DNA of 24,000 nt from Embleya sp. NBC_00888. Its GTDB lineage: Bacteria; Actinomycetota; Actinomycetes; Streptomycetales; Streptomycetaceae. Numbering within the stretch: the first letter of the stretch is position 1; each line of letters starts with the position of its first letter. The stretch covers positions 230,016 to 254,015 of the forward strand of contig NZ_CP108784.1 of assembly GCF_045207655.1 (NCBI RefSeq), read 5' to 3'. Made by a program: the position numbers and the translations under genes. The notes beneath the pieces were generated by a model, which was given only the letters and a program-made list of their open reading frames with translations, did not search any database and was not told where the DNA came from. Shown here piece after piece: positions 3,086-23,703 of the stretch.

Positions 3086-3452
3086 GCTCGACCCGGGCGA
3101 GACGCCGACCGCGGCCTGCGCCCGCGAGGCGTGGGAGGAGACCGGCGTCATCGTCGACCCCGACCACCTCAGGCTCGCCCATACCGTCCACCACCACCAG
3201 GGCGACGGCGCCCCCGACCGCATCGGCTTCTTCTTCGAAGCCACCGCGTGGGAACACGAACCGGTCAACAGGGAAGCCGACAAATGCCTGCGCCTGGCGT
3301 GGTTCGCCGTCCACGACCTCCCTGACGACCTCATCCCCTACCCGGAGGCCGGCCTGCGCGCATACCTCGACGGCGACCCCGGCATCACCGTGCACGGCCG
3401 GCCGGACGACACCGAACGCGTTCGACGGACTGAATCACCGACCCGAGAGTGA
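2967..3452 (+). CDS. NUDIX hydrolase (N-terminus uncertain, possibly truncated or degenerate)
   Basis: Clear Nudix box G-x5-E-x7-RE-U-x-EE-x-G-U, GKLDPGETPTAACAREAWEETGV, starting at 3081. Plausible downstream fold (RIGFFFEATAWEHEP..., LAWFAVHDLPDDLIPYPEAGLRAYL). The 31-38 codons before the box (from ATG 2988 or 2967) are Cys/Ser/Thr/Arg-rich, lack the usual W.LPGG, and overlap the divergent minus-strand ORF. Confidence 0.6.
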   Translation: MFCAGIAMPSRTTRSPCSLVLNNCSRFLPTTRYTERHSGKLDPGETPTAACAREAWEETGVIVDPDHLRLAHTVHHHQGDGAPDRIGFFFEATAWEHEPVNREADKCLRLAWFAVHDLPDDLIPYPEAGLRAYLDGDPGITVHGRPDDTERVRRTESPTRE

Positions 3453-3777
3453 TTCGCACCGACAGCCGATGCGCGGGACTCTCCCGATCGACCGGCAGGC
3501 TTTGTGTGCCGCAACTGTGAACGGACGCCCCGAGCCACGGAGTTCGAGCTGCCCACGACGCGCAGGCCCTGACGCATCGTGGGCCGCCGGTTCGGGACGT
3601 TCGGTCGTTCAGTGCCCGGTGAGCACGATGACGGCGTCGGCGCCGAGGGTCCGCGTGATCCACTCGTGCGGTTACGGGAGGGCACGCGTCCGCAACGCGG
3701 CGCGGGTGGCGACTCGATCGGCGGCATCGACCGGGAGGGAAACCGGCTTCGAGGCCACCCGTACGGGTGAGCGGCTT

Positions 3778-6387
3778 CTACCCGCCGGCGACGGATGCGG
3801 CGGCCACGTCCAGGAGTTCGCCGAGTGTGCCGTGGAACTCCGGGGCGAGGTGCACCGCGACCGCCCACGCGTCGACCGACCTCCCGAGCCGCGCGCGCAG
3901 CAGGGCGCCGAGTTCCGCCGTCACCGGGTGGTCGACCTCGAACCGGGCAAACAATCGCAACGTGTACGGCACGAACCGGCATTCGTCGACGACATCGCGC
4001 ACGGTCAGCCGCCCGTCCCGCAGATGCGCCTCCGGCCAGCCGCCGCCGTCCTCGATGCGGGTCCCGCGCCGCAGCCCCGCCACGCTCAGTTCGCGTGGGC
4101 AGTCGGGGTGGCGCAGCGCGCCCATCAGCGCGTGCGTCGGCAGCGGATCGAACGCCTGCTCGTGCTCCGCCGCGATCAGCGCGTCCCACGGCAGTGGGTC
4201 CCACTCCTCCAACACTTCCGCCGGAGCGTCCTCGCTGCGCAGCGCGGCGATCATCCGGTCGCGCGCGGTCGGCCCGGTGATCCAGGCCCGCAGGAGTGCC
4301 GGCCCGTCGGGCGCGGCGAGCGCCTGACGCGCGACGGTGTCCGCCCCACCCGGTACGGGGGTCCCCCAGCTGCCGCGGAGCGTGCGGAGGTCGGTCTCCG
4401 CGATCAGCGTCGCGACCTCGTCCCGCCCGGCGCGTTCCCACAGTACGACCAACGCCCGCAGCCTGCCGACCTCGGTGCGGGGGATGCCCTGCCTGATCGT
4501 CTCGCGCAGTACGCGCGGTTGGCCGGACAACGCCGCGAGCCGGAACCGCTCGTCGCGCCCCCCCACTTCGTAGCGCCGCAGGTCGGCCAGCACGTCCTCG
4601 GCCACCGGCACCGCGCCCGCACGGCCCGCGCGGTCGACGCCGGCGAGGACGCGGGCCCGCTGTGCGCCGGTGATCGGCCCGTACCGGAAGAGGGCCGCGT
4701 TGACGTCCGGGTCGTCCAGGTCGAGGAGTTCCGCGACCGCGTCGGCGGGTTGCTCGACGAGCGCGGCCTGGCCGAGGGCCGCCGTCTTGCCGTGCGTGTC
4801 CCGGATCCGCCGGCGCAGCCCGGTGTCGGCGGCGCTCGGCATGAGCAACTGCTGTGCGGCGCGCGGGTCCAGGATCGCCACGAGCGCGTCCCGGACGTCG
4901 GGTGCCGCGTGCGCGAACAGGACGAGGAACGCGAAGTCGCCCGGGGCGGGCGCGGTGGCGGCAGGGACGGCCGCCCTCGGCGGAGCCGGCTCGCCGGTCG
5001 AGGCGAGGACCGAGGCGACCAGGTCGACCGGCGTGCCCCGGGTGTTCCCGTGGCCCCGGCACAGCGCCGTCCACGCGGCGGGGGAGGCGCCCAGTCGCGC
5101 GGCGAGGCCGGCCAGCGCCGCGCGTACCGCGGGCACGTCGGTGGGCAGGCACTCGAACACCACGTGTGCGGGAGCCGCTTCGGCCAGCACCCGCACGGGG
5201 TCCAGGGCCCCGGCCCGCAGGCCCTTGGCCAGACCGTCGGCCCACTCCCCGCCGACCGGGTCCACCTCCGACGCAGTGAATACCTCGAGCGGCGGCACTC
5301 GGGGCGACACGTCGAAGACGGTGTACGGGTCCTCGCGCACCGCCGCGGCGTACAGGTCGTCGGGGCAGTCGGCGCGCACGGTCAACGCCGAGAGCGCGGG
5401 CCCCACGAACGGCCGACGGGCGTGCTCACCGCGGACCAGCTCCCAGTCGACCTCCGGGAGTTCGGCGAAGGCGGCGACAGCGCGGCCGGCGTACCCGTGG
5501 CCGAGACGGTCGACGCGCACGCGCGCGGCGTCGGCCGGACGCCTCTCCCACTCGCCGGCCGCGCGCCGTACGCCCGGCAGCAGCCGGTCGAGCGCGGTCG
5601 GCGACGCGGCGGCCTCCGCCGCGTCGCCCCACCGGCCCGCGAGCTTCGGATGCCCGAGAGCGTCGCGCTCGGCAGCCGCGACGGCGAACTCCGCGACCAC
5701 GTCGTCGCCGACCCGGCGCAGCCGCCGGCAACCCTCGAGCAGCACCGCGGGCGGCAGATCGGGGCCGAGGGCGAGCAGCGTGCGGGCGAGCACCTCGGGG
5801 AACGGCGCCCGCAGCGCGGCGATCGGCCAATCGTCCGGAAGCCGATTGTCCGGACCGTCGGAGAGCAACTCCTCGACCAGGCATGCCGGCCGGTACCACC
5901 GCCTGTCGGACGCGTCCGCTGCGTCCAGCACCGCCGCGCGCACCGCGTCGGCCTCGGCGTCACCGGCCCGGCCCGCCCGCGAGTACAGCAAGGCGGACAC
6001 CTCCGGCTCGCCCAGCCGCGCGAGCGCCAGACGCACCGCGAGGGAGGTGTGCGTGTTCCCCGCCAGCGCCTCCCACAGCCGGACCTCACCCGAGGCCAAC
6101 ACGGCGTCGGCCAACTCCGCCGGCATCGGTTCGTCCGCGCGAAGCCCAGCCTCGACCCGCCCCGCAAACCGGTCGACCAACGCCGAGTGACACACCGGAT
6201 CGGCGGCCCGGAACACCACCACCAGCGACGCCGCGTCCGCGCCATGCGCCAAGACCCCCACGTCCCCCGCCCTTTCCTCCTCCGCCCGCACGACCGAGAG
6301 CGACCGCCGTGCTCGGGCCACCCGGCAATCCGCCCTCAGCGTGCCACAGCCCCCACGCTCCCTGCGTTTGCCCGCCGGGCCGCCCAA
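3778..6387 (-). CDS. Large hypothetical modular repeat protein, paralogue of the 1-1722 ORF
   Basis: 869-codon minus-strand ORF of natural composition. The 1041-codon plus-strand ORF over it is an R/G/P-rich shadow. It contains two copies of the module seen in ORF 1-1722. The first is EVDWELVRGEHARRPF..RADCPDD ... LGASPAAWTALCRGHGNTRGTPVDLVASVLA. The second is PLPWDALIAAEHEQAF..RHPDCPRE ... LGRSVDAWAVAVHLAPEFHGTLGELLDVA. The listed start at 6387 is TTG. GTG at 6261, preceded by GGAGGAGGAAAGGGCGGGGGAC, is a plausible alternative start. Confidence 0.8.
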   Translation of the reverse strand: MGGPAGKRRERGGCGTLRADCRVARARRSLSVVRAEEERAGDVGVLAHGADAASLVVVFRAADPVCHSALVDRFAGRVEAGLRADEPMPAELADAVLASGEVRLWEALAGNTHTSLAVRLALARLGEPEVSALLYSRAGRAGDAEADAVRAAVLDAADASDRRWYRPACLVEELLSDGPDNRLPDDWPIAALRAPFPEVLARTLLALGPDLPPAVLLEGCRRLRRVGDDVVAEFAVAAAERDALGHPKLAGRWGDAAEAAASPTALDRLLPGVRRAAGEWERRPADAARVRVDRLGHGYAGRAVAAFAELPEVDWELVRGEHARRPFVGPALSALTVRADCPDDLYAAAVREDPYTVFDVSPRVPPLEVFTASEVDPVGGEWADGLAKGLRAGALDPVRVLAEAAPAHVVFECLPTDVPAVRAALAGLAARLGASPAAWTALCRGHGNTRGTPVDLVASVLASTGEPAPPRAAVPAATAPAPGDFAFLVLFAHAAPDVRDALVAILDPRAAQQLLMPSAADTGLRRRIRDTHGKTAALGQAALVEQPADAVAELLDLDDPDVNAALFRYGPITGAQRARVLAGVDRAGRAGAVPVAEDVLADLRRYEVGGRDERFRLAALSGQPRVLRETIRQGIPRTEVGRLRALVVLWERAGRDEVATLIAETDLRTLRGSWGTPVPGGADTVARQALAAPDGPALLRAWITGPTARDRMIAALRSEDAPAEVLEEWDPLPWDALIAAEHEQAFDPLPTHALMGALRHPDCPRELSVAGLRRGTRIEDGGGWPEAHLRDGRLTVRDVVDECRFVPYTLRLFARFEVDHPVTAELGALLRARLGRSVDAWAVAVHLAPEFHGTLGELLDVAAASVAGG
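6324..6351. repeat. Direct repeat copy 1 (GGCAATCCGCCCTCAGCGTGCCACAGCC)
   Basis: Matches 6418-6443 (GGCGATCCGCCCTCAGTGCCACCGCC) apart from two substitutions and a 2-nt indel. It lies in the 5' region or leader of the 3778-6387 gene. Confidence 0.6.
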
Positions 6388-6417
6388 CCGGGAACGCCCG
6401 CCGTGGCCGGGCCACGC

Positions 6418-6443
6418 GGCGATCCGCCCTCAGTGCCACCGCC
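6418..6443. repeat. Direct repeat copy 2
   Basis: See copy 1. The two copies start 94 nt apart, in the same orientation. Confidence 0.6.
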
Positions 6444-6517: not shown

Positions 6518-7355
6518 TCAGGGGGCCTGTCCGCCGAAGTCGGTGGCGTGGTCGGCAGCCCAGGCGGCGAAGTCGCGGGCCGGGCGGCCGATGACGTCGC
6601 GGATGGTGTCGGTGACCGGTGCGGGGTGGTCGACAAGGGCGGCGAGGCGGCGGATTCGGGTCTCGACGACCTCCGCGTCGGCCCACCGGCCCAGGCGCAT
6701 CGCGCGGTAGTCGTCCGGTGGTTGCGTCAACATCGAGACCGACCGGGCCGAGGACATCCGATGAGCTCGGCCTGCCGGCGCGCGGTGAGGGATTCGGGCC
6801 CGGTCAGGGTGTGGACGGCTCCGTGATGCCCCGGCTCGGTCGAGGCGCACCGGCGACCGGCGCGATGTCGGCCTCGTGGATCAGCGCCGAGCTCGAGTCG
6901 GGAAAGGCCTCGTGGACCACGCCGTCACCGCGGATCGACTCGGCCCTCAGCAGCCGGTTGGTGGCGAACCCGCCGGAGCGCACGAAGGTGTACGGGATCG
7001 CCGAAGCGCGGACCGCCAGTTCGGCCTCGCCGTGGGACCACCGGCTGTATCTCACCCAACGGTGGCACACACGAGGACACAGCCTGGCAGTGGCCAACCC
7101 CAACCACACGTCCACGCAAGGGAGTTCCTGGAGACTCACCGCCCGGCCCGTGATCGTCCTCCCCGAAACGATCACCCTCGCCCGCGTCCTCGCACGCCGG
7201 CCACGGACACCCCGACCGAAGGCCACCCGGACGTGACCGCATTCCTCGGACACGCCGCCCACGCGCTCGGCTCCGGCCGCCTCGCCCCCGAACCCCGAAG
7301 GCCATTTCTTCTGCCGATTCGACGGGCCGCAGCACGCTGACCTGGGCTGTCTCAC
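6518..7355 (-). pseudogene. NmrA-family / atypical SDR NAD(P)-binding protein, frameshifted pseudogene
   Basis: NmrA-like motifs occur in the canonical order but on three minus-strand frames. First frame: ...SHGEAELAVRASAIPYTFVRSGGFATNRLLRAESIRGDGVVHEAFPDSSSALIHEADIAPVAG (ORF 6804-7355). Second frame: EPGHHGAVHTLTGPESLTARRQAELIG (about 6760-6845). Third frame: SVSMLTQPPDDYRAMRLGRWADAEVVETRIRRLAALVDHPAPVTDTIRDVIGRPARDFAAWAADHATDF (ORF 6518-6850). That implies at least two frameshifts, near 6845 and 6750. The N-terminal GxxGxxG Rossmann motif is not recognisable. Confidence 0.65.
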
Positions 7356-7456
7356 TTGGCCTTGTCCCTGACGTGCGAACCGGACGAGGTCAAGTGAAAC
7401 GGAGGCAATGTCTCGTGCCGAGTAGCCGAGGGGAGTTTCACCCCTCGGCTCTCACA

Positions 7457-7490
7457 GAACCGTGCATAACAGTCTCCCGTTACACGGCTC
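7457..7490 (-). ncRNA. Group II intron domain V (outer intron)
   Basis: A 34-nt hairpin, GAGCCGUGUAAC-GGGA-GACUGUUAUGCACGGUUC. It has the AGC triad position and a 2-nt bulge in the 3' strand, and lies directly after the IEP stop. Confidence 0.85.
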
Positions 7491-7505
7491 TTGTCGTCCT
7501 GATCA

Positions 7506-7948
7506 TCAGATCAGTGAGGCGTCCACGGTGAGGCGCCAGTGCGCGAACATGCGGGGGTATCGCCGGGCGATCTCCCGCAGTTTCGCGGTGGCCTTCCGCT
7601 TGGCCTTGAGCCGTTTGTACTTCTGGCGGATCCAGCGCACCAGGTAGGCGTTGATGCGCATCAGGAAGGGGTGCAGTTCCCACGGCCGGAAGCGGCCGAA
7701 GTAGTTGATCCAGCCCGCCACCATGGGGTTGACCCAGCGGGCGAGCTCGTTGAAGGACAGATCGGAGCGGGTGTGCAACTGCCAGGAGCGCACCTCCCGG
7801 CCGATCCTCGTCAGGGCGTCTCGGCTGACGGCCGGTTCGAACGACAGGAAGAGCCTGCCGTGTCGGTTCCGGTTTCGTCTGGCGCGGAACGTGTATCCGA
7901 GGAAGGTGAACGCCTCGTGCTCGAAAGAGCCTCGGCGGGAACCGTTCT
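7506..7948 (-). CDS. Outer-intron RT/maturase ORF, 3' segment (X/maturase domain)
   Basis: ...(K)NGSRRGSFEHEAFTFLGYTFRARRNRNRHGRLFLSFEPAVSRDALTRIGREVRSWQLH...VNPMVAGWINYFGRF...RINAYLVRWIRQKYKRLKAKRKA...* is collinear with the inner IEP's C-terminus. 817 nt + 443 nt = 1260 nt, which is 419 codons plus a stop once joined. Confidence 0.85.
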
Positions 7949-7988
7949 GTCGGGTGGCCCGGGGGAATCGCACCCCCGGGCTCCCACA

Positions 7989-8022
7989 GATCCCGGCGTG
8001 ACAGTCTCCCGTCACCGGGCTC
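7989..8022 (-). ncRNA. Group II intron domain V (inner intron)
   Basis: A 34-nt hairpin, GAGCCCGGUGAC-GGGA-GACUGUCACGCCGGGAUC. Relative to the outer copy the stem changes are compensatory. Confidence 0.85.
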
Positions 8023-8034
8023 TTACTGTCCTGG

Positions 8035-9297
8035 TCACCACACGCGCGGTACCGAAGGAACCCATTGCCAATGCACAAGCAGGCGAGGGTATCGCTTGAC
8101 GATCCCTTGCCAGCTCTCCTGGGCCTTCTTCCTTGACCGCAGCCGTTTGTATTTCTGACGGATCCATCGCACCAAGTAGGCATTGATGCGCGTCAGGAGG
8201 GGATACAGCGCCGATCTGTAGAAAGCGCCATAATAGTTTATCCAACCCCGCACGATCGGGTTGACCTCCCGTACGAGGTCCATGAAGGTGTGACCAGTGC
8301 GTGAGTGCAGCCTCCAAGACCGCACTTCTGCGCTGATCCTGTTCAAGGCATCCTTACTGATCGCAGGCAGGAACGAGGTAAACATCCTCCCCTCCTTGTC
8401 CCGCGCTCCGCGAGCCCGGAACGTATACCCCAGGAAGGTGAACGACGTGTACTCATGCGAGCCACGCCGCGTCCCGTCCCGGCAATAGACGATCCTGGTC
8501 TTCTCCGGATGCAGCGCCAGCCCGACCTCATCCATCCGCTCCGTTAGCGCCTTGAGTACAAAACGTGCCTGGCGTTCACTGAAACAGTGCAACACTGCAT
8601 CATCCACATAGCGTTCGAACCTGATGGCCGGGAACTTCCTGGCCATCCATGTATCGAAGGCGTAGTGGAGGAACAGGTTGGCGAGTACGGGTGAAACCGC
8701 AGACCCCTGAGGGGTTCCACGGTGGCGCTGCTGCAAGGTTCCGTCGGGTAGTTGCAGCGGGGCATTGAGCCACCGTCGCACATACAGCACCACCCACGGG
8801 AGGTCGGTGTTCGCCTCCACCGCTTTGACGATCAGATCCCACGGGACACTGTCAAAGAACTTCCGGATGTCGAGGTCGATCACCCAGTCGGCTTTCCAAC
8901 AGCGTCGCCGGCAGACCTCGACTGCGTCCAACGCGGAGCGCCTCGGCCGGTACCCATAGGAGTCCGGATGGAAGATCGGTTCGACCTTCCGCTCCAATAC
9001 CTGAGCCACTACCGTTTGCGCAATCCGGTCGCCCACAGTCGGCACCCCGAGAATCCTGGTGCCACCGCCATGCGTCTTGGCGATCTCCACCGCCTGCACG
9101 GGGGGCGGGAAATACGAACCGGAGGACATCCTGTTCCAGATCTTATACAGGTTTCCCTTGAGATCCTTCTCGAACTCCTCGATCGATACCCCGTCGACCC
9201 CCGGTGCACCCTTGTTCGCCTTGACCTTCTTGTATGCCTCCCAGACCGCCCGTTTCGAGATTTCGAACGGCTTGCCTGACGATTTCAACTCGTCCAC
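8035..9297 (-). CDS. Group II intron reverse transcriptase/maturase (RT + X domains, no En domain)
   Basis: GTG at 9297 lies 4 nt after GGGAGGAG; the listed ORF start at 9339 is further upstream. RT motifs: KGAPGVDG, PPPVQAVEIAKTHGGGTRILGVPTVGDRIAQ, FHPDSYGYRPRRSALDA, DIRKFFDSVPW, RGTPQGSAVSPVLANLFLH, the active-site variant YVDDAVLHC, and HPEKTRIVYC. Maturase/X region: FLGYTF...VNPIVRGWINYYG...RINAYLVRWIRQKYKRL. The protein ends 12 nt before domain V, and no HNH/En motifs are present. Confidence 0.9.
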   Translation of the reverse strand: MDELKSSGKPFEISKRAVWEAYKKVKANKGAPGVDGVSIEEFEKDLKGNLYKIWNRMSSGSYFPPPVQAVEIAKTHGGGTRILGVPTVGDRIAQTVVAQVLERKVEPIFHPDSYGYRPRRSALDAVEVCRRRCWKADWVIDLDIRKFFDSVPWDLIVKAVEANTDLPWVVLYVRRWLNAPLQLPDGTLQQRHRGTPQGSAVSPVLANLFLHYAFDTWMARKFPAIRFERYVDDAVLHCFSERQARFVLKALTERMDEVGLALHPEKTRIVYCRDGTRRGSHEYTSFTFLGYTFRARGARDKEGRMFTSFLPAISKDALNRISAEVRSWRLHSRTGHTFMDLVREVNPIVRGWINYYGAFYRSALYPLLTRINAYLVRWIRQKYKRLRSRKKAQESWQGIVKRYPRLLVHWQWVPSVPRVW

Positions 9298-9877
9298 GCG
9301 ACTCCTCCCGGGCATCAGCCCGGTTGATCGAACGAACAACAGTCACGGACAGCCCGGCCCCTTCGCTCCACCCCCATTACAGGAGCTTCATCACTACTAC
9401 GAACCGGTCCGCCGGCGGACCCCAACTCGGTACTCAGCTCCTTATGGTTCCTGCCACTTGGAGCGCTCCCTTTCGCCTACCCGAAGGTTGACGGCATGGG
9501 GCCCGCCTTCTCCCGTTCCATACGGAAGCGGCAGATCAGGATCACGTCGTCTACATGCCGGACACCGCCTGGCCAATAAACGGGCACCCGCCAGACTGGT
9601 CCCGGGATAACTGCAACATCCCGGTTTTGATGTCAGTTGTTCGTGTTACGACACGTCAGCAACGATTCGCTTGCGCTCGTCTTCCTGATCCCTACCTGAC
9701 GCCTCACGGGCGCCTTTTCCTCATCGCTCACCACGACGGTCTTCAGCCAACGCAGCATGAGGCGGTTTCAAGCCTCCCCCCGCAGGGCGACTTCGAAGGG
9801 CCTTCCTTCATCTTCCGTACAGCACCGCGTCAAATAGCTCTACCTACATAAAGCTCCCCTTCGCGTTCGGGACACAC

Positions 9878-10694
9878 TGCAGTACACGATCCGGGTCTTG
9901 TCCGGGTGCAAACGCAGCCCGACCTCGGCCATCCTGTCCGTGAGCGCGGTCAGGACCTCGCGGGCCTGGCGCTCGGTGACGCAGTGCAGCACCGCATCGT
10001 CCGCATAGCGTTCGAACCAGATGGTCGGGAACTCCCGGGCCATCCACGTGTCAAACGCGTAGTGCAGGAACAGGTTTGCCAGAACAGGAGAAACCGGGGC
10101 CCCTTGCGGGGTCCCACGTTCCCGTTCCACCAGGGAGCCGTCGGGCATGACGAGCGGGGCAGCGAGCCACCGCCGCACGTACAAGTTCACCCAAACGGCG
10201 TCGGTGTGCGCTTCCACCGCCTTGAGCAGCAGGTCCCAGGGCACGCTGTCGAAGAACCTGGCGATGTCGAACTCCACCACCCAGTCCCGCTTCCAGCAGC
10301 GCTCCCGGCATTTCGCCACCGCGTCCAAAGCGGACCGTCCAGTCCGGTATCCGAAGCTGTCCGGATGGAAAGCCGGCTCCACCCTCCGCATCAGATGCCG
10401 GGCCACCACGGTCTGTGCCACCCGGTCGGAGACAGCGGGAATGCCGAGCATCCTCGTGCCACCACCGTGCGGCTTGGGAATGGCCACCGCACGCACCGGC
10501 GGCGGAAAGTAGGAACCCGACGACATCCTGTTCCAGACCTTGTACAGATTGTTCTGAAGGTCTTTCTCGAAGTCGGCGATGCTCTGCCCGTCCACCCCAG
10601 GAGCGCCCTTGTTCCCCCTGACTTCCTCCCACGCCTCCTTGACTTCCCATTTCGAAATATCAAACGGCTTGACCTGAGACTTCAACTGGCCCAT
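9878..10694 (-). CDS. Outer-intron RT/maturase ORF, 5' segment (split by the inner intron)
   Basis: ATG at 10694 lies 4 nt after GGGAGGAG. The sequence MGQLKSQVKPFDISKWEV...KGAPGVDG...YADDAVLHC...HPDKTRIVYC runs up to the inner intron's 5' splice site. The read-through tail SVSRTRRGALCR* is intron sequence. Confidence 0.85.
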
Positions 10695-11714
10695 CGAACT
10701 CCTCCCGGAGAACATCCGGTTGATGCGATCAACACAGTCACGAACGACCCGACCCCTTCACTCCACCCCCGTTACAGGGGCTTCATCGCTACTACGAGCC
10801 GGTCCGCCGGCAGGACCCGCGTCGGTACTCGACCCCTTGCAGTGTCCGCTGCTTGGGGCACTCCCTCTCGCCCGCTACTACGCGGCGGGCAGTATCGGAC
10901 CTGCCTTCTCCTGTTCCACGCGGAAGCCGCAGACCGGACTCACGTCACCTACATGCCGGACACCACCTGGCCAATAGGCGGGCACCCGCCAGGCTCATCC
11001 CGGAGTTCGTCTCACACCCCGGTTCCGATGTCATCTGTCTGTCTTTCGACACGTCAGCAGCGATTCACTTGCGTTCGTCTTCCCGGTCCCCACCTGACGC
11101 CTCTTACGACGCCTTTTCCTCATCGCTCACCACGACGGCCTTCAGCCAACGCAGCATGAGGTGGTTTGGAGCCTCCCCCGCAGGGCGACTCCGAAGGGCC
11201 ACAAAACCTTCATCATCCGCACAGCACCACTCATGGAAGCTGTCCTACGACCAACTCCCTTTCATGTTCAGGACACAAGAAACGGGACACCTCCTCGCAC
11301 GGCCGCAGGGTCAGCGCTGCATGTCCGCAGATTTAGACCCCGGATGACACTCGGATACCGCGAATCTCGGAACCGGCACCGAGAGGGCGACGCGTGCTCG
11401 GCCGTCCTCGCGGGTTCGGCGCGCCCCATATGCCGATTCGAACCCGCGTTCTGCTCGGCGGAGGGCTGCATCTGTAACACCTGCGCGGTCTGTGGGACGT
11501 GAAAGACACTGTCGAGTCGTTGACGGTGGTGGTCCGTCCTGCCTGGCAGACCGGACCGCGAGCTTCCTCGTCGACCCGACCGCATCCTCGGAAGCGGGTG
11601 TCTCGCTGCGACCGGGCCAAAGGCCGTGGAGCTTGCAGCGATCCCGGCGCCGAGCGGATGCCTCGCGAGCGCGTGACGACGGTGGTCGGCGGGGCCCGCC
11701 ACAGAGTCCTGTCC

Positions 11715-11741
11715 GGGTCGGGCGGCGTTTCCGCCCGACCC
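11715..11741. other. Perfect 11-bp GC-rich hairpin (GGGTCGGGCGG-CGTTT-CCGCCCGACCC)
   Basis: Read directly from the sequence. There is no U-tract on either strand. It lies in the otherwise unassigned 11.3-12.1 kb stretch and could be a factor-independent terminator of the Streptomyces type or another RNA element. Confidence 0.3.
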
Positions 11742-12110
11742 GACCGGTGGCAATTCATACCTACGAGCCCTCGGCGGTCGGCGGGGCGCGCCGGACGGGT
11801 GCAAGAGGGTGGGGAGTCCGTCGAGGCGTGGGCGACCCGCTTGGTCGGCGCCGACGCTTCAGCAGGCAATGGTCCGCCGGCTCCAGGCGATGTGCTCCGC
11901 CTCAGCCACCGCTTCACGACGTACCTCGAACGGATCACGCCCGTCGGTCCGTTCGGGATAGCGGCGGGCCGGTGCGCGGCCTCGGCAAAGTACAGGGCCA
12001 AGCGGAGACGTTCGGGGCTGACGAAACGAGCGTCGAAGGTCTCCGAACTTCCGCCTTGAGGCATCTGGCTCTGGGTAAGGAACGCTCCCTCCAGCACCCG
12101 CAGATACGGA

Positions 12111-13232
12111 GTGGCAGGGGGCTTTCCACAATGCCAGCCGCCGGCGATGGGTGCCGTGTCCGGGCAGACTTTCGATGCCCACGGCACCCATGCCTGTCGC
12201 CCCCCACACGCGAGTCGCGAGCGTGTCGAGAACCGCGCGTTCGATCGCCTCGGCGTCTCGGCCCGTGGGGGTGCCGAAGTCGGCAAGGAGCCGCCCGCTC
12301 ACGCTGCCCTGTACCGCGCCCTGCTCGACCACCGCGTGGACCCGAGCCCGGCCATGGTGCATCGCACCATGGCACTCGTGCGTGCCGCCGGCACCCGCTC
12401 CGCCGGCATCAACCCCGTCTACGCGCACACCCTCATGGTGGCCTGCTCCCACCCCCGCCACGCGCGCCTGTACGCCCGCATGGTCGTCGAGGCCGCCGAC
12501 CACCGCGCCATCACCCGCCACGCGGTCCGCCTCCGACAGGTCGCCGCCGCGGACCTCGCCCGCGACGGTATCGACGACACCCTGGCCCATCACCAGGCCC
12601 TGCACACCGCCCTCGACGACCTCGCCCACCGCTGGGGCGAACCCCGACCCGCCATCACACCAAGCCCAATCCACCCAAACCCTCCTGAGTCGCCCTGCCC
12701 GCGTGTCCTGAACGAGGAACAGACCCTGATCGCCGCGCTGATCATGGACCCCACACCGCTGGACGACATCATGCGCTGGCTCCACCCCGAGGACTTCATC
12801 GACCAGACGCACACGGTCCTGTACGGATGCGTGACGGCCCTCGTCCGCCGCGGTGAGACCGTCGATCCCCTGACGGTGCTGTGGGAGGCCCAACGCCGCG
12901 GCCACCTGGCCGACGACAACCTCGATCCCGAACTTGTCCTGAACATAAGCGCATCCGGCGTCGCCGGGAGCAGCGACTACTGGGCACGGCGCGTCGTGCG
13001 CACCGCACTCCTTCGAACCGCCGTCGTCGGCGCCCGCGCCGTGCGCGCACTCGCCGACAACCCGACCCTGTCACCTCGGTCACTTGTTTGCGCAGCACGC
13101 GAAGCGCTCGCTCCGCTGGATGCGACCCGCGCCCGTTGGCACACCGCAACGCGGCTCCCCACGAAGGCTCCACGCCGTCACGCACCCGGGCGGCTTCGAC
13201 CGCTGCCGACCGCTCGCCCACCACGAGTTTAA
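12111..13232 (+). CDS. DnaB-helicase N-terminal-domain-containing protein (no helicase/ATPase domain); start uncertain
   Basis: The C-terminal half matches the DnaB N-terminal domain pattern: EEQTLIAALIMDPTPLDDIMRWLHPEDFIDQTHTVLYGCVTALVRRGETVDPLTVLWEAQRRGHL...SSDYWARRVVRTALLRTAVVGARAVRALA. The N-terminal half is a more degenerate second copy: HAALYRALLDHRVDPSPAMV...INPVYAHTLMVACSHPRHARLYARMVVEAADHRAITRHAVRLRQVA. No Walker A motif anywhere. The start at 12111 is GTG with a poor SD. Confidence 0.7.
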   Translation: MAGGFPQCQPPAMGAVSGQTFDAHGTHACRPPHASRERVENRAFDRLGVSARGGAEVGKEPPAHAALYRALLDHRVDPSPAMVHRTMALVRAAGTRSAGINPVYAHTLMVACSHPRHARLYARMVVEAADHRAITRHAVRLRQVAAADLARDGIDDTLAHHQALHTALDDLAHRWGEPRPAITPSPIHPNPPESPCPRVLNEEQTLIAALIMDPTPLDDIMRWLHPEDFIDQTHTVLYGCVTALVRRGETVDPLTVLWEAQRRGHLADDNLDPELVLNISASGVAGSSDYWARRVVRTALLRTAVVGARAVRALADNPTLSPRSLVCAAREALAPLDATRARWHTATRLPTKAPRRHAPGRLRPLPTARPPRV

Positions 13233-13305
13233 CTCCCACGTCCCCACCAGCCCCGCCCCCCAGCGGGCCGAACGCGGAACATCCCTCGGCCACCGGGAGA
13301 CGCCC

Positions 13306-13590
13306 ATGACCGAAAACGCCTACCCCGTCTCATACCTGCGCCACCCACTCCACGTCGCCCAAGCGGTTGAACAGATCCGCCAAGCCCTCATCGACCCCCG
13401 TGCTGCCATCCTCACCGGCCGGTCCCCCGCCACCGGGGCACCTGGAACCGTCGCTCAACTGGCCTCGCTCCACGGCGTCCTGGCCTCCCTCGCCGCGCAG
13501 ATCAGCGACGAGATCACCGCCCGCTCCGACGTCCACGCGCGCACGGCGGCCTCCCGGACCACGACCGACATGTTCGTCGACGCTTCGTAG
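13306..13590 (+). CDS. Hypothetical small protein (94 aa), possibly the 5' part of a decayed longer gene
   Basis: ATG at 13306 lies 5 nt after GGGAGA. The sequence is MTENAYPVSYLRHPLHVAQAVEQIRQALIDPRAAILTGR...DMFVDAS*, with high GC3. Coding-like sequence continues past the TAG (see findings). Confidence 0.5.
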   Translation: MTENAYPVSYLRHPLHVAQAVEQIRQALIDPRAAILTGRSPATGAPGTVAQLASLHGVLASLAAQISDEITARSDVHARTAASRTTTDMFVDAS

Positions 13591-14090
13591 TACGCGAGCG
13601 ACGCCCTCGTCCACCTCGCCCAGGCCGTACGCCACGCCCAGGAACGGCAGGCCCTCGTCAACGGCGAACCCACACCCGAGGCCGATCCATCGCAGGCTCT
13701 TCCAGTACCTGGCCTACCGACTCACGGCCGCGACAACGGAACTGGGCCACCTCACATCGGCATTGCGCAGCGACCACCACGCGAGCGGCCACACCTACCC
13801 GTTTCCCACCAAGCGCGTGGTCGGCATCACCCCAATGGCCGGAAGCATCGTCGACGAGCAGTTCGCACTCGCCCACGCCCCCCACACGCGTGAGGCCGCT
13901 CTTCGCCGCTCGACGAGGCTCACCCCCATCTGCCCGACAACGGAACCGGGGCCGGGTGCGCACCCCGAACTCAACGAACCCCACCATTTGTTCCGAAGCG
14001 GGCACTAAGCCGTGCGGCAGGCCCTGATCTGGACTGATTTCGGGGATGCGCGAGGCACTTCGACAGCCGGTCGCCATAACGGCTGGGCGT

Positions 14091-14190
14091 CCATTGCACT
14101 TGGCTGAAACCGACAGTTGGGTATCCGTTGCATTTGGCGGAAACATGTCGGTTGGTTCGTCAATTGGCTGGAAGAACAGCCCCATTGTCA
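14091..14190. repeat. Degenerate tandem direct repeats, about 34-36 bp unit, 2 good copies plus 1-2 partial
   Basis: Unit 1, 14091-14124: CCATTGCACTTGGCTGAAACCGACAGTTGGGTAT. Unit 2, 14125-14160: CCGTTGCATTTGGCGGAAACATGTCGGTTGGTTCGT. A partial third copy is CAATTGGCTGGAAGAAC (14161-14177), and CCCATTGTCA (14181-14190) resembles a unit start. The repeats lie in a lower-GC non-coding spacer. Confidence 0.6.
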
Positions 14191-14550
14191 GCCCGGACCC
14201 CACAGCGTGCTGTCGACCCAAGCAAAAGGCCCCAGCATGCTGTTCGCCCGCTACTATTCCCCTTCAACGCCATCTGACCTGCGGTGGAGCAAGATCACCC
14301 GAACCTGCGCGCAGGGACCCGGCGCCCCAAACCCCGAGTGAAATACTTCATGGTTGGACGCAATTTCGGCATGTATCGCCGGTAGGCGAGTGCGTTGCAT
14401 CACTTACTACGCACCCCGCGAATTACGGCCGATGATCGTGCCTGTCTTGATCCTTACTTACCTTCATCGCCATCCCCTGTGATTATTTTGTGTGTTCAAC
14501 TTCGTTCGATATCCGCCCCGCCTGCCTTCACTGAAAGAGGTAATTTCGTG

Positions 14551-14841
14551 ATGAAGCTCAAGCGTGCAGCAAAACTCGTGGCCGCGTCCGGTGCGCTGAT
14601 CGTGGCGGTCGCCACCCCTGCAATGGCGACCATCGACTACCCCAGCGGCGGAACCTGGGACCACGGGGCCGGCACAGCCACCGTGTGGTCGCACTACCAC
14701 CACCCGTCCGTCTGCCACGGCTCGACCTCGGTCGGCACCTACACCGAGCGCGCATCGGCGGGTGCCGGATCCTGGTCCTACACGAGCGCCACCGCCAAGG
14801 CGTGGGGCAACGAGACCTACTACAGGACCACCTGCAACTAG
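14551..14841 (+). CDS. Lactococcin 972-family bacteriocin precursor (96 aa; predicted 26-aa Sec signal, 70-aa mature peptide)
   Basis: AAAGAGG SD lies upstream of GTG 14548 / ATG 14551. The signal peptide is MKLKRAAKLVAASGALIVAVATPAMA|TIDYP. The mature N-terminus GGTWDHGAGTATVWSHYHH parallels the Lcn972 signature EGTWQHGYGVSSAYSNYHH as I recall it. Genomic context is the family's canonical three-gene operon. Confidence 0.85.
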   Translation: MKLKRAAKLVAASGALIVAVATPAMATIDYPSGGTWDHGAGTATVWSHYHHPSVCHGSTSVGTYTERASAGAGSWSYTSATAKAWGNETYYRTTCN

Positions 14842-14859
14842 CAGTCAGCACGCGTAGCA

Positions 14860-14898
14860 GCCTCCGAAGGAGCCGTGCACCGCGGCCCCTTCGGAGGC
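14860..14898 (+). terminator. Stem-loop between the bacteriocin gene and the downstream membrane/ABC genes (terminator or attenuator)
   Basis: Perfect 11-bp inverted repeat GCCTCCGAAGG (14860-14870) / CCTTCGGAGGC (14888-14898), with additional inner GCCG/CGGC pairing. It starts 19 nt after the stop codon. The downstream T-tract is only weak (GCGCTTTCCCC). Confidence 0.55.
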
Positions 14899-14952
14899 AT
14901 GCGCGCTTTCCCCATGGCCGGCCGATCCCTCTCATAGCCCTGTAGGACACGC

Positions 14953-17043
14953 ATGCCGCATCGTGGCGTCAAGTTCGCGCACTTCGTCATCCTGGCGTTC
15001 TCCCCCCTGTTTTCCTTTCTGTTCCTCAAGAGCTTCGAAGAGCAGTGGACCCTGGGCTACGACACGGTCGTCCAGGTCACCGAGTCGCGGGACACCAGCA
15101 CCAGCCAAGCCGTAGTGCAAGCCATCGAGACCTTCGCCCGCGACCATGACGTCACCGTGGGTCGGCAGGAGGTCGACCTGAAACAGCCGGACCGCAGCCG
15201 TGACCTCTACCTCACCGTGGCCGGCCCCCGCGCGAACTGGCTCGATGGCGGCTATCCGGCGTTCAACCCCGGACAGCCCACCAGGACCCGACCGCTCACC
15301 GACCTCTCCAATCGCGACCCGCAGGGCCTGTACTACCTCTTCGGCGATCCCAACGCCGTCGGACCCTTCCTCGAACTGCTGGAGCAGCACGGCCTCATCA
15401 CACGGCACGTCGAGCCGACCTCCTTCGACCAGCTCTCCCTTGCCTACGACGGCAGCGCCCTGGTCGGATCCCTCGTCGTCGTCGCACTGGCCTGCTTCAC
15501 CATGACCGGCGCCGGCGTTCTGCTCAGCGCCAAGTCCTACGGAGTGCTGCGTTTGCAGGGCATGTCCCTGCCCGCGATCCTGGCCCGCGACCTACGCCGC
15601 CTCGCGCGCTTCTGGACCACTGCCCTCGTCGTCGTGGCGGTCGCCGCAACCGGGCTGCTCGGCTGGTACAACCACCTTGCCTGGTTCGGCCTGTTCGCCA
15701 TCGTCACCGCCGCAACGGCTGCGGCGTTCACCGCGCTCGTCCTCGCCGTCCACGCCGCGACTCTCGCACTGACCGCACGCATCGGTGTCCTGGCCGCCCT
15801 CAAGGGCGAGATCCCTGCCCGCGCCGCAGCCGTCGCGTCCTATCTCGTGCGTGTGCCCGCGCTCCTGCTCACCTTGGGAATCGCCGCCACGGTCCTGCAG
15901 GCCGGACAGGATCTGGTCCGCCGTGAGGACACTCTGGGCGTGTACGAGAAGGCGGGCGACGCCTCCTCCATCCGCCTCAGCGGCGCCCTCGGAGGCCCGG
16001 ACGAAGTGACAAAGATGGAGGCGAAAATCGGCCCGTGGCTCCGTCAGGCCGACGCCGACGGCCGGATCGTTCTCGCCGGCCACATTGACCTTGCACGCTC
16101 AAGCGAAGCCCAGATGCTCCCTGCGAAACATCTGATGGTCGTCAACGAGACCTTCCTCGAACAGCAAAAGATCCTGGCCCCGGACGGCCACCGCTACCCC
16201 GCCACCAGAGGCCGCGACGGCCGCATCCTCCTTCTTGTCCCCGAGCACCTGGCGCCGTACACCGACAAGCTCACCACCCTGGTGCCGAGCATCGTCACCC
16301 CGTCCGATCCAGGCCGGATCACACCCGGGCAGATCGACGTTCGGCCCAGCGCAGACAGCCAGAAAATCTTCACCTACAACGCCCGCGGCGCCCGCCAAGC
16401 GGGGCGGGACCGGCCCTCGGACGCGTCCTTCCTCACCGACCCCGTCATCGTCGTCGTCCCCAACGGCACCGACTACATCACCGACATGGATTACACCGCC
16501 TACGCCTCCCAGCGCAGGATTGTCTTCCCGGACTCCGCCGACATCACCGCCGGCATCGACGCTCACGATCTGCGCGATGAAATCATCGGCACCAGCCCCG
16601 TCGCCGCCGACGCGGCCCAGGCCATCCGCGAAATCACCGCCGACTTACGCCTGAGAGTGTTCAACCTGGCCATCGCCCTCATGGTTCTGCTCGTCACCGG
16701 AATCGGCGTCGTCATCGTCCACACCCGCCACAACGCCCAGCGGATCTTCGCCCGGCACATCCACGGCTGGACATTCGCCGCGACCCACCGCACTCTCCTG
16801 GCCGCGGAAGCCGCGATCGTCGCCCTGCTCGTCTCCTGGATCCCCTACCAGGTCCACAAATCCAACCAGGGTCTCGAACGGTACAAGGCCATAGGCATCC
16901 CCCCACCCCGCGACCCCACGACCATCACCGGTCAGGACCTGACCGCCATCGCCTGCCTTGTCGCGGTCGAGATCACCGTCATCCTGCTTGTCCTGACCTT
17001 CTTCCACCGCCGTGTCGTCAAGGAAGGATCGACCGAAGCGTGA
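14953..17043 (+). CDS. Bacteriocin-associated integral membrane protein (DUF1430 / Lcn972-operon putative immunity-transport permease)
   Basis: 696 aa. There is an N-terminal TM (FAHFVILAFSPLFSFLFL), a soluble domain of about 140 aa, a cluster of TM helices (about 15440-15900), a second soluble domain of about 230 aa, then three C-terminal TM helices. This is the topology of the large membrane protein encoded next to lcn972-type genes. Its stop overlaps the next gene's start (GTGA). Confidence 0.8.
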   Translation: MPHRGVKFAHFVILAFSPLFSFLFLKSFEEQWTLGYDTVVQVTESRDTSTSQAVVQAIETFARDHDVTVGRQEVDLKQPDRSRDLYLTVAGPRANWLDGGYPAFNPGQPTRTRPLTDLSNRDPQGLYYLFGDPNAVGPFLELLEQHGLITRHVEPTSFDQLSLAYDGSALVGSLVVVALACFTMTGAGVLLSAKSYGVLRLQGMSLPAILARDLRRLARFWTTALVVVAVAATGLLGWYNHLAWFGLFAIVTAATAAAFTALVLAVHAATLALTARIGVLAALKGEIPARAAAVASYLVRVPALLLTLGIAATVLQAGQDLVRREDTLGVYEKAGDASSIRLSGALGGPDEVTKMEAKIGPWLRQADADGRIVLAGHIDLARSSEAQMLPAKHLMVVNETFLEQQKILAPDGHRYPATRGRDGRILLLVPEHLAPYTDKLTTLVPSIVTPSDPGRITPGQIDVRPSADSQKIFTYNARGARQAGRDRPSDASFLTDPVIVVVPNGTDYITDMDYTAYASQRRIVFPDSADITAGIDAHDLRDEIIGTSPVAADAAQAIREITADLRLRVFNLAIALMVLLVTGIGVVIVHTRHNAQRIFARHIHGWTFAATHRTLLAAEAAIVALLVSWIPYQVHKSNQGLERYKAIGIPPPRDPTTITGQDLTAIACLVAVEITVILLVLTFFHRRVVKEGSTEA

Positions 17044-17711
17044 TCGACCTGACCGGGCTGTCCAAGTCCTTCGGCCCCCGTACCCTGTGGCAGGACCTGA
17101 CCTTCACCATCGAAACCAAGCGTCTCCTCGCTCTCACCGGCCCCAGCGGATCCGGCAAGTCCACCCTCCTCAACTGCCTCGGGCTCCTCGACACCCCCAC
17201 CGTCGGCACAATTCGCCACAACGGCCAGGACATCACCAGGCTCAGCCACCGCAAAGCCCGCCTCTACCGCCGGGACACCCTCGGCTACCTCTTCCAGAGC
17301 TATGCCCTGATCGACAACGCCACCATCGCCGACAACCTCAGCCTCGCGGCCAAGCCCAGCCGCTCGCTCCGCGCCTCCCGCCCCACACTCGACCAAGCAC
17401 TGGAGCAGGTCGGCCTGGCCGGCCGCGGAGACGACATCGTCCACCGCCTCTCGGGTGGTGAGCAGCAACGCGTCGCTCTCGCCCGCCTCATCGTCAAGCA
17501 ACCCGCCCTCGTGCTGGCCGACGAGCCCACTGGTGCCCTCGACCCCGACAACACCCGCACGGTCATCGCCATCCTTCGCTCCCTGGCCGACACCGGCTGT
17601 GCCGTAGTGATCGCCACCCACGACCCCACCGTCCGGGACCTGTGCGACAGCGTCCTCCAAGTGGGCATCGACACCCATCCTCACCTCGTCAAGGAGAGCA
17701 CCACTGCATGA
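17040..17711 (+). CDS. ABC transporter ATP-binding protein (lactococcin-972-group type by context)
   Basis: Walker A GPSGSGKST, Q-loop LFQS, signature LSGGEQQRVALAR, Walker B LVLADEPTGALD, H-loop ATHD. GTG at 17040 overlaps the upstream TGA (GTGA), which suggests translational coupling. Confidence 0.9.
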   Translation: MIDLTGLSKSFGPRTLWQDLTFTIETKRLLALTGPSGSGKSTLLNCLGLLDTPTVGTIRHNGQDITRLSHRKARLYRRDTLGYLFQSYALIDNATIADNLSLAAKPSRSLRASRPTLDQALEQVGLAGRGDDIVHRLSGGEQQRVALARLIVKQPALVLADEPTGALDPDNTRTVIAILRSLADTGCAVVIATHDPTVRDLCDSVLQVGIDTHPHLVKESTTA

Positions 17712-17744
17712 ATGCGCGTCTCTCCCGGCCTGTCGCCGTCGCCC

Positions 17745-18313
17745 TGGTTGTCGACGCCTTCGGTGCGTCCGTTGTGGTGGGCCAGGTGAGAGCCGCGCTG
17801 ACGGCCTCATGGTCGAGTTCGAGACCGTTCGCGAAGGCGTGCAGGTGGGGAAGGCTGGATGCGCGGACGGCCTCGATCCACGTTGTCAACCCTGTGCCGT
17901 TGCCCGGATTGGGGACAACCCGTTTGGCGACCCCCTCACGAGAACCGCGATTTGCGTCATCTCGGGGCAGACGGCGGTGAGGTCTCGGATGAGTTCGGCA
18001 TCGCTCTCGCGCAGGTTGCCGGGGCGCGTGAGGAAAAGCTGGGCGAAGCGCCTGGGCGTGGTCACGGGCCGGTCGCCTTCGGCGCGTCCTCGGGTGACAG
18101 AGCGGTGGAAAGGGTTGAACCTACCGGTGTAGCCGGCTTCCTCCGCCTGGCCTTCCTCACCCTCGCCACAGCCACAAACGACGACGGCAACTCACCACGT
18201 AGGACTCGCTCCAACCAAGGGCCATACTGCTGTCCGGTGTAGGCGTCGCAATCCACATCGAACCGGGAAGCCCTCGCTCGTTCAACCCCGCACCCCCATG
18301 CGATCCGCACCAA
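17745..18313 (-). pseudogene. ISL3-family transposase remnant (C-terminal part, multiple frameshifts, 5'- and 3'-truncated)
   Basis: Minus-strand pieces lie in different frames. They read DAYTGQQYGPWLERVLRGELPSSFVAVARV...; RFAQLFLTRPGNLRESDAELIRDLTAVCPEMTQIAVLVR; VAKRVVPNPGNGTGLTTWIEAVRASSLPHLHAFANGLELDHEAVSAALTWP; and HNGRTEGVDNQ. Together these follow the ISL3 C-terminal consensus (..cPe...l..Fa.ll......L..Wi.a...s.lP.L..Fa.gl..d..AV.aalt.p.sNG.tEG.N..iK). The homology stops before the expected KMLKRQMYGRA tail. Confidence 0.6.
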
Positions 18314-18578
18314 CCTCCGCAGTCAGTACAACAGGCGAAACAGGCCGACGACCAGGACCACGCGACGAAGGCGACGTATGGCAGTCCGCGCAGCAACATC
18401 GTGGCGGCCATACGCCGCGTAAGGCCGCAGTGGCCGTGGCACCGGGTGGGCCTTTGATGGACCGCCTCCGCATCGAGGCCTCCGGTGGGTGAGTGTCGGC
18501 GGGTCTGGTGCGTTGGAGACCCCTGCGTGCACTTCCCTCCATTGCCCAGCCGACGGCCGAGTGAGTGAACTCCCCGTG

Positions 18579-18597
18579 TATACATCGAATGTATAGT
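18579..18597 (+). promoter_or_regulatory. Palindromic operator overlapping a -10-like hexamer directly upstream of the PadR gene
   Basis: Perfect inverted repeat TATACAT-CGA-ATGTATA (18579-18595). TATAGT (18592-18597) ends 6 nt before ATG 18604, which implies a leaderless or near-leaderless transcript. No convincing -35 was seen. Confidence 0.5.
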
Positions 18598-18603
18598 CAC
18601 GCC

Positions 18604-23361: not shown

Positions 23362-23424
23362 CGTGGTCAGGGCGGGGTCGATCCGGCGGGCGGTGATCGG
23401 CATCTCCGGCATTCGGGGCGGGAC

Positions 23425-23691: not shown

Positions 23692-23703
23692 CCGTTGCTT
23701 GAG

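Follow-up and report, generated by a model that had tools for sequence, protein, structure and literature searches.

A probable group II twintron in Embleya sp. NBC_00888, in which one intron interrupts the reverse transcriptase/maturase gene of a related intron

Group II introns nested within other group II introns (twintrons) are known from an archaeon, from cyanobacteria and from plastids. In Methanosarcina acetivorans, introns home site-specifically into the sequences and open reading frames (ORFs) of related introns, the nesting is repeated, the flanking exons contain no coding gene and the host intron offers a perpetual target for homing (Dai and Zimmerly 2003, as summarised in PMC4424553). 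In Thermosynechococcus elongatus, a family of introns (TeI3) has evolved to target a conserved position within the ORF of a mobile intron (TeI4) or its surroundings; the inner copies are identical and the outer ones diverged, which was read as a sign of recent independent insertions, and a single intron-encoded protein (IEP) may act on the two introns (Mohr et al. 2010, PMC2882425). The inner introns of T. elongatus have no ORF and are located between the first two ATG codons, so that translation from the second ATG still yields the outer IEP (PMC2882425). Introns within introns, for which sequential splicing is expected, also occur in Trichodesmium erythraeum (Pfreundt and Hess 2015, PMC4649490) and in Euglena plastids. 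Most bacterial twintrons have no housekeeping gene that depends on their splicing (PMC4424553). We found no report of an actinobacterial twintron in the literature searched, albeit this is weak evidence of absence. Here, we analysed a 24-kb stretch of the chromosome of Embleya sp. NBC_00888 (the window) and describe a locus which very probably represents a genuine group II twintron, in which one intron (the inner intron) retrohomed into the reverse transcriptase (RT)/maturase gene of another (the outer intron).

Two ribozymes and two reading frames in one locus

In order to delimit the ribozymes, Rfam cmscan was run over the whole window, with gathering scores of 40 for Intron_gpII and 36 for group-II-D1D4-2. 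Four matches above these scores were obtained, all on the minus strand, and no others (Table 1). Read along this strand, the locus consists of the outer 5' ribozyme, the start of the outer ORF, 817 nt of this ORF, the complete inner intron, the remaining 443 nt of the ORF and the outer domains V and VI. The core of the outer ribozyme, i.e. domains I-III from 11278 to about 10720 and domains V-VI at 7490-7417, is untouched by the insert, and the ribozyme has a size of approximately 670 nt. The two introns are collinear with 72.6% nucleotide identity, and both have a similar hairpin and Shine-Dalgarno element just 5' of the start codon. A sequence-only reading of the window had proposed two ribozyme sets with separate domains V and VI, each set with an exon-binding site 1 (EBS1) hairpin and a bulged A in domain VI, and had set the inner element at 7949-9877 (GUGUG...GAC) with an intact 420-codon RT/maturase ORF. 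The Rfam matches bear out the two sets, all of the proposed elements fold as claimed, and extent, termini and ORF of the inner element (GTG at 9297 to 8035) agree with that reading.

Cutting out 7949-9877 joins ...TAC TGC A^AG AAC... in frame (here and below, a caret marks a splice junction or insertion point). The rejoined outer ORF, which starts with the ATG at 10694 preceded by GGGAGGAG and is split by the insert at codon 273, comprises 817 + 443 = 1260 nt or 419 codons, just as the sequence-only reading had computed. The collinearity with the inner IEP that it had pointed out extends over 415 residues with zero gaps and 68% identity. Neither ORF has a stop or a frameshift over its 1260 and 1263 nt, respectively. 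Both IEPs match TIGR04416 over their full length with 401 and 390 bits (cut-off 300), both contain RVT_1 and GIIM domains and lack an endonuclease domain, and the RT active-site motifs YADD and YVDD are kept across the two proteins. The inner IEP is identical to WSY37316.1, an RT and maturase (X) domain protein with a YVDD motif and without endonuclease domain. Alignment to full-length IEPs, suggested earlier as a check of the joined ORF, runs end to end: the rejoined outer IEP is at most 88% identical to uninterrupted IEPs of 419-421 aa from Streptomyces and Kitasatospora, with 99-100% length coverage.

The ends of the outer intron were defined by pairing and by alignment. Its first base is the U of UUGUG at 11278, a register shown by 6/6 pairing between intron-binding site 1 (IBS1) and EBS1. 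Its 3' end had initially been placed at 7415 (...GCAC), which is 2 nt off: the terminus is ...CUACUCGGC with 7417 as last base, because the Rfam match ends there, the alignment of the intron family puts CUACUCGGC^ at this position and EBS3 (U10951) pairs with A7416. A 3' end at 7415 was rejected on account of the same three observations. Thus, the outer intron without the insert measures 1933 nt and the whole feature occupies 7417-11278. Of the two nearly equal lengths estimated before, about 1935 and 1929 nt, the latter holds for the inner intron and the former has to be corrected to 1933 nt.

In the annotation, the N-terminal piece of the outer IEP (284 aa, window 9840-10694, minus strand) is a protein of its own, the group II intron reverse transcriptase/maturase WSY37317.1. 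Annotation pipelines thus list the 284-aa outer piece as a separate RT/maturase gene and, at related loci, a GIIM fragment of 152-161 aa, and one survey notes that the outer intron of a twintron escapes its own intron-finding pipeline (PMC8919778). To the 90%-identity cluster of WSY37317.1, several Streptomyces genomes contribute 14 truncated proteins, which measure 280-368 aa (e.g. 317-318 aa in NBC_00117, NBC_01386 and S. aureus). These truncated proteins may mark other interrupted introns.

Table 1 Features of the nested introns, with positions in the window and the basis of each assignment.
Feature	Position	Strand	Basis or remark
Whole twintron (outer intron with nested inner intron)	7417-11278	-	Rfam matches, EBS1/IBS1 and EBS3/IBS3 pairing, family alignments
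Outer intron, 5' piece	9878-11278	-	Domains I-III, DIVa, first 272 codons + 1 nt of IEP ORF
Inner group II intron, complete	7949-9877	-	1929 nt, GUGUG...CCCGAC; Rfam matches; full-length relatives
Outer intron, 3' piece	7417-7948	-	Last 147 IEP codons, stop 7506-7508, domains V and VI
group-II-D1D4-2, inner	9694-9809	-	102 bits, full model (Rfam cmscan)
group-II-D1D4-2, outer	11092-11211	-	100 bits, full model (Rfam cmscan)
Intron_gpII domain V/VI, inner	7949-8024	-	50 bits (Rfam cmscan)
Intron_gpII domain V/VI, outer	7417-7492	-	58 bits (Rfam cmscan)
Outer domain V	7457-7490	-	Hairpin of 34 nt (fold); AGC triad
Outer domain VI branch A (bulged)	7423	-	Fold
Inner domain V	7989-8022	-	34 nt, AGC triad; fold, Rfam
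Inner domain VI bulged A	7955	-	6 nt before 3' splice site; fold
Inner IEP ORF	8035-9297	-	420 codons + stop, GTG at 9297; Shine-Dalgarno GGGAGGAG upstream
Outer C-terminal ORF fragment	7506-8183	-	
Inner EBS1, UGCAGU	9610-9615	-	Hairpin loop; covariation, fold
Inner EBS2, ACACGA	9641-9646	-	Covariation; 6/6 pairing with IBS2
Inner EBS3, U	9553	-	Pairs with IBS3 A at 7948
Inner IBS2 + IBS1	9878-9889	-	Codons Ile-Val-Tyr-Cys-Lys (A^AG) in outer ORF; 12/12 Watson-Crick pairs with EBS2 + EBS1
Outer EBS1, GAGACG	11008-11013	-	6/6 (one G-U) with IBS1 CGUUUC, 11279-11284
Outer EBS2, AGACAG	11039-11044	-	Core pairs with exon -8 to -11 (11286-11289), 4 pairs
Outer EBS3, U	10951	-	Pairs with A at 7416, first 3'-exon base
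Ligated outer-ORF junction, expected after inner splicing			...GUGUACUGCA^AGAACGG..., also written ...GGATCGTGTACTGCA^AGAACGGTTCC...
Ligated outer-exon junction, expected			With end at 7417: ...GTGTCCCGTTTC^ACGAGACATTGCC...; with end at 7415: ...TTTC^GAGACATT

Exon recognition and the ends of the introns

For the analysis of target recognition, about 90 related introns were aligned at their 5' and 3' regions (loci L004-L019, found by exact IEP matches, and L020-L099, found by a genome scan), and the EBS elements were located by covariation of intron columns with exon positions in 63-73 distinct introns. Exon positions -1 to -6 pair with inner intron positions 263-268 (EBS1; 77-97% paired, 5-6 pair types) and positions -8 to -10 with 233-235 (EBS2; 82-83% paired, 6 pair types), both among 73 introns, and position +1 forms a Watson-Crick pair with position 325 (EBS3) in 92% of the introns, here 63 distinct ones, among which each of the four pair types occurs. 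In the window, EBS2, EBS1 and EBS3 of the inner intron pair 13/13 with UCGUGU-ACUGCA^A in the outer ORF (9889-9878 and 7948). These 13 nt code for ...Ile-Val-Tyr-Cys^Lys..., a conserved block with which the RT domain ends. Since EBS3-IBS3 recognises exon position +1 (U:A in both introns), both ribozymes are IIB-like. Class C (IIC), whose members lack EBS2, have a very small ribozyme and insert behind a terminator or attC stem-loop, was also considered and is ruled out by the EBS2 covariation, the ribozyme size and the targets, one of them an ORF and the other a site without a hairpin. Among solved IEPs, a PDB sequence search gave IIC proteins as the closest, albeit weak, matches (E = 4e-42 to 1e-40).

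The termini of the outer intron (UUGUG...GC) depart from the GUGYG...AY consensus, to which the inner intron (GUGUG...AC) conforms. Within the family, the first and the penultimate base are G and A in 61 introns and U and G in 10, and none is mixed. In the outer intron, the U1 and the penultimate G correspond to 11278 and 7418, and the same termini are found in L028, L029, L044, L045, L049, L054, L056, L061, L091 and L098. IBS1-EBS1 pairing in the U1 group is 6/6 in 10 of the 11 introns and 5/6 in the remaining one, with six different EBS1 sequences, and pairing as good as this is obtained only in the register with U as first intron base. The possibility that the T at position +1 of the outer intron is an inactivating defect is ruled out by the ten independent insertions of the lineage that start with UUGUG and show 5-6/6 IBS1-EBS1 pairing. 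From these alignments, the UUGUG...GGC termini look like a natural compensatory pair which is typical of the lineage, rather than like decay. The first and the penultimate nucleotide of group II introns reportedly interact in the second splicing step (a finding ascribed to Chanfreau and Jacquier, 1993). The coupled U1/penultimate-G ends could inform how intron ends interact in this step. A terminal interaction of group II introns is also mentioned by Zimmerly and Semper 2015 (PMC4424553).

Recurrence of the inner clade in other host introns

The 90%-identity cluster of the inner IEP comprises 102 sequences, and the contexts of two members, P0246 (Streptomyces atratus) and P0242 (183 metagenome contigs), were examined. 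In most of the 16 loci L004-L019, the 420-aa IEP is preceded by an RT fragment of 284 aa, which ends about 545 nt before it, and is followed after 62 nt by a GIIM maturase fragment of 152-161 aa. Full-length inner-type introns with 89.6-94% nucleotide identity to the window copy are present in S. atratus and in soil metagenomes. All inner relatives examined, with IEPs 81-95% identical, reside at the same Cys^Lys codon of different host introns, and those with 81-83% IEP identity (P0122, P0125) occupy this site as well. The junction is constant, ...AT(C/T)GT(G/C)TACTGCA^GTGTGTCCCGAAC ... CCACCCGAC^AG(G/A)AC, between the two halves of a host intron, and was present in 16/16 of the loci found via close IEP relatives (L004-L019), where the flank was available. 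A metagenome scan for the 20-nt 5' junction retrieved 8 more junctions, whose host flanks were new and which all follow the codons ...HP(D/A)KT.(I/V)VYC^. Together, at least 14 distinct host flanks with the identical junction were found in isolate genomes and metagenomes. Judging from these junctions, the inner clade seems to home regularly to the Cys^Lys codon block of other introns, and it was seen at no other site. The precise insertion by homing into the RT/maturase ORF of a related intron, as originally proposed for the window, is supported by these host flanks as well as by the 13/13 pairing.

The inner copies are 99.8-100% identical in hosts which are 54-84% identical in the flanking 180 nt (L004 vs L005, L010 vs L017), which points to recent independent invasions. 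Excision of the inner copy restored the host frame across the junction in 9/10 other twintron loci tested, with a complete host ORF in L005 (S. atratus chromosome, CP027306.1) and L014. In L004 (a S. atratus strain, GCA_042800515.1), the host ORF is out of frame after removal of the inner intron, which suggests that the host of L004 has decayed, unlike the intact host of L005. No inner-clade copy was found on PLSDB plasmids, where the best match had 76.6% identity. On one 5.9-kb metagenome contig (L100), a 5' junction of the twintron type is found on either strand (4028 plus, 1905 minus), with slight differences between the two host flanks.

The genome-contig scan with the inner IEP listed relatives with 69-79% identity, missed S. 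atratus and provides no genome count for the twintron. Among the matches listed, a perfect empty site ATCGTGTACTGCA^A (Lys codon) was present in 30 of 83 uninterrupted related ORFs (L020-L099, GTDB genomes), and in most of the others the base at position -1 is C, which gives an Arg or Gln codon. The ORF of the inner intron itself has this C(-1) variant, GTCTATTGCC^GGG at window 8476-8490, which would mismatch its EBS1. We consider it an even call that the inner clade (IEPs at least 81% identical) is a specialised hyperparasite, for which the Cys^Lys block ...AUCGUGUACUGCA^A... in host RT genes is the only homing site observed. Hosts with the Lys codon would be susceptible and hosts with Arg or Gln resistant, and the target polymorphism would act as immunity within a self-contained intron-on-intron ecosystem. 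This proposal is a joint one and the balanced odds apply to it as a whole: it includes that the hosts belong to several intron lineages in Streptomycetaceae and soil actinobacteria, and that other lineages use at least three further intra-intron homing sites.

Other insertions within introns were seen in the same data set. In L010 (295-2232) and L013 (3' end at 101), an intron of a third lineage is found at ...CTGCAC^TATGCGTTCGAC, encoding Leu-His^Tyr-Ala-Phe-Asp, 186 nt upstream in the same host ORF; the host of L010 thus bears two introns side by side. The homologous site is empty in the outer intron of the window (10050-10067), and its equivalent in the inner intron is at 8653-8670. In L047, L050 and L051 (Streptomyces sp. 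NBC_00996), another lineage is inserted in ribozyme domain I at ...GGAGGCUUCAAACCGC^CUCAUGCUGCG (insert 3412-5340), where it would disrupt folding of the host ribozyme until spliced out. The homologues of this site in the window, 11154-11169 (outer) and 9755-9769 (inner), lie in the most conserved stretch of domain I. At position 93 of L110, ...^TGTCCGGCATGTAGACG directly follows the 3' end of a further intron; it matches about position 312 in domain I of an inner-clade intron, which suggests a further nesting level inside the parasite intron.

Origin, alternatives and comparison with described systems

On our proposal, the outer intron, a member of an endonuclease-less, IIB-like group common in Streptomyces and relatives, would first have retrohomed into non-coding or degraded DNA, guided by pairing of EBS1, EBS2 and EBS3 with the flanking exons. 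The inner intron, about 73% identical to it, would later have reverse-spliced into the outer RT/maturase gene, or into an ancestor copy thereof, by recognising the 13 nt of IBS2 (UCGUGU), IBS1 (ACUGCA) and IBS3 (A). Since both IEPs lack an endonuclease domain, retrohoming presumably occurred via nascent DNA strands at replication forks, a route which is established for endonuclease-less introns (PMC4424553). The locus would be transcribed from outside the outer intron, the inner intron would splice with its own IEP and thereby re-create the outer ORF, and the outer ribozyme would then splice with the help of its own IEP, of the inner one or of another copy in trans. As the insert is located in the ORF loop of domain IV, the outer ribozyme should fold independently of inner removal; the layout indicates that inner splicing would be needed only for translation of the outer IEP, and not for folding of the outer ribozyme. 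Without it, a 284-aa outer protein lacking the maturase domain is predicted to be the only one that can be made. An obligatory splicing hierarchy, as put forward in the sequence-only reading, is plausible with respect to the supply of outer IEP, and could be bypassed by the inner IEP or a copy in trans.

Several points weigh against this proposal. Our homologue search did not find an uninterrupted copy of this outer intron with more than 88% protein identity, and the exact inner IEP sequence is present on only one NCBI contig, the Embleya chromosome; because of these two findings, the insertion may date far back, or outer and inner intron may have come in together. Where metagenome contigs traverse a repeated intron they can be chimeras, and some pairings of 5' and 3' host flanks, e.g. 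in L019 and L106, may be artefactual, although each junction alone stays informative. In addition, the metagenome scan queried the junction itself and was biased towards site specialisation, so that only the loci found via their IEPs are unbiased. Splicing, the order of splicing and current activity are predictions from the anatomy of the locus.

Of the alternatives, unit mobility, i.e. retrohoming of an outer intron which already carried the unspliced inner intron, survives best, even if we regard it as rather unlikely. That a composite can move has been recognised for twintrons as an option (Mohr et al. 2010, PMC2882425), and the searches revealed no empty outer copy and no further inner one in Embleya. 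Elsewhere, however, identical inner copies in divergent hosts favour separate invasions. The window does not discriminate between the two routes for this copy, and unit mobility would alter the history of the feature and not its nature.

We judge it unlikely, too, that the locus is a dead relic, with the outer intron inactivated by the insertion and neither element splicing or moving at present. The single contig with the exact inner IEP, the lack of a known near-identical uninterrupted outer copy and the frameshifted host in L004 would fit such a relic, and there would be no host-gene selection for splicing: no ORF runs across the joined outer exons in any frame and the ORFs flanking the outer intron have no Pfam match, which rules out a host gene. 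Against a relic stand the complete ORFs, the RT motifs, domain V, the branch A and all EBS/IBS pairings, which are intact, and the U1...G ends of the outer intron, which are typical of its lineage and not damage. Moreover, 100% identical inner-clade copies in different hosts point to a currently active lineage.

A misassembly of 7949-9877, by which the nesting proposed from the sequence would fall, was assessed with independent contigs, and these cover both junctions of the inner intron. A Logan contig of SRR21428312 (window 9733-20694, 100% identity) and one of SRR21696615 (9733-15006, 99.96% identity) span the 5' junction, extending 145 nt into inner-specific sequence, and a second contig of SRR21428312 (7626-9739, 100% identity) spans the 3' junction with more than 300 nt on either side of it. 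The short-read contigs end at 9733-9739, in a domain I stretch that is near-identical between the two introns, and repeats thus do hamper assembly locally, but this break point is away from either junction. Given in addition that base-exact excision restores the frame and that the same junction occurs in the complete S. atratus genome and in many metagenome contigs, the chance that two separate, 73%-identical introns were misjoined via common repeats is minimal. Recombination or duplication at the DNA level between two intron copies, instead of reverse splicing, is virtually out of the question despite the long near-identical stretches common to both introns, as homologous exchange would give a chimera or a tandem pair and not an intron between host halves, and as the insert runs from its own position 1 to its own last base with flanks that pair 13/13 with its EBS elements.

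The neighbourhood of the twintron looks like an accessory region. Window 12060-22147 and 22969-23703 contain genes for a DnaB N-terminal-like domain protein, a lactococcin-972-family protein, ABC/FtsX transporters and a PadR regulator as well as a DDE transposase fragment. Pfam gives no match for the large ORFs at 1-1722, 3778-6429 and 14938-17043, nor does it support the idea that 6518-7355 is an NmrA-like pseudogene.

Homing into the gene of another intron is already known from an archaeon and from cyanobacteria; the present locus extends it to bacteria of the Streptomyces family. To these cases it adds a clade apparently specialised on one codon block, further intra-intron homing sites in related loci and the terminal covariation between U1 and the penultimate G. 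Thirteen base pairs define the target, which makes the locus a clean natural system that could be used to probe the use of mobile introns as safe landing sites by other mobile introns, the service of one maturase to two ribozymes and codon choice at the target as protection from invasion.

With regard to their class, both introns are similar to the small IIB-like, endonuclease-less introns of classes D, E and F or of the g1 group among Toro's g1-g4 (PMC3552965, PMC3753933), a similarity judged by general features. These features are an IEP of 419-420 aa with RT and X domains only, a ribozyme of about 670 nt, the use of EBS1, EBS2 and EBS3 and a branch A located 6 nt before the 3' splice site. 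Examples of such introns are RmInt1 and, from actinobacteria, Ca.ac.I1 and Rh.js.I1 (PMC3552965, PMC3753933). The ends of the outer lineage, UUGUG...GC, are unlike the 5' GUGYG...AY 3' consensus.

The features of the M. acetivorans introns named at the outset recur in Embleya and in the related actinobacterial loci, including two introns in one host (L010) and insertions in domain I (L047, L050, L051). Compared via reviews, the systems differ in that the host here is a bacterium (Streptomycetaceae) and not an archaeon, and in that the window contains only two nesting levels, with full IEPs in both introns. The likeness to TeI3 inside TeI4 of T. elongatus lies in the conserved ORF site, the pattern of inner and outer divergence and the possible service of one IEP to both introns. 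In contrast to T. elongatus, the inner intron in Embleya has its own IEP and splits the outer ORF in the middle of the gene, and thus no functional outer IEP would be made without inner splicing. The T. elongatus introns also belong to a chloroplast-like lineage with larger IEPs (562 residues in the solved TeI4h-type chain), whereas the introns described here lack the endonuclease domain. Sequential splicing has been shown experimentally in Trichodesmium (PMC4649490), whereas the Embleya locus is known from its sequence alone. In Euglena, finally, the insertion frequently lies in ribozyme domains of the outer intron, and the inner intron has to be excised before these can fold, whereas the Embleya insert is accommodated in the ORF loop of domain IV.

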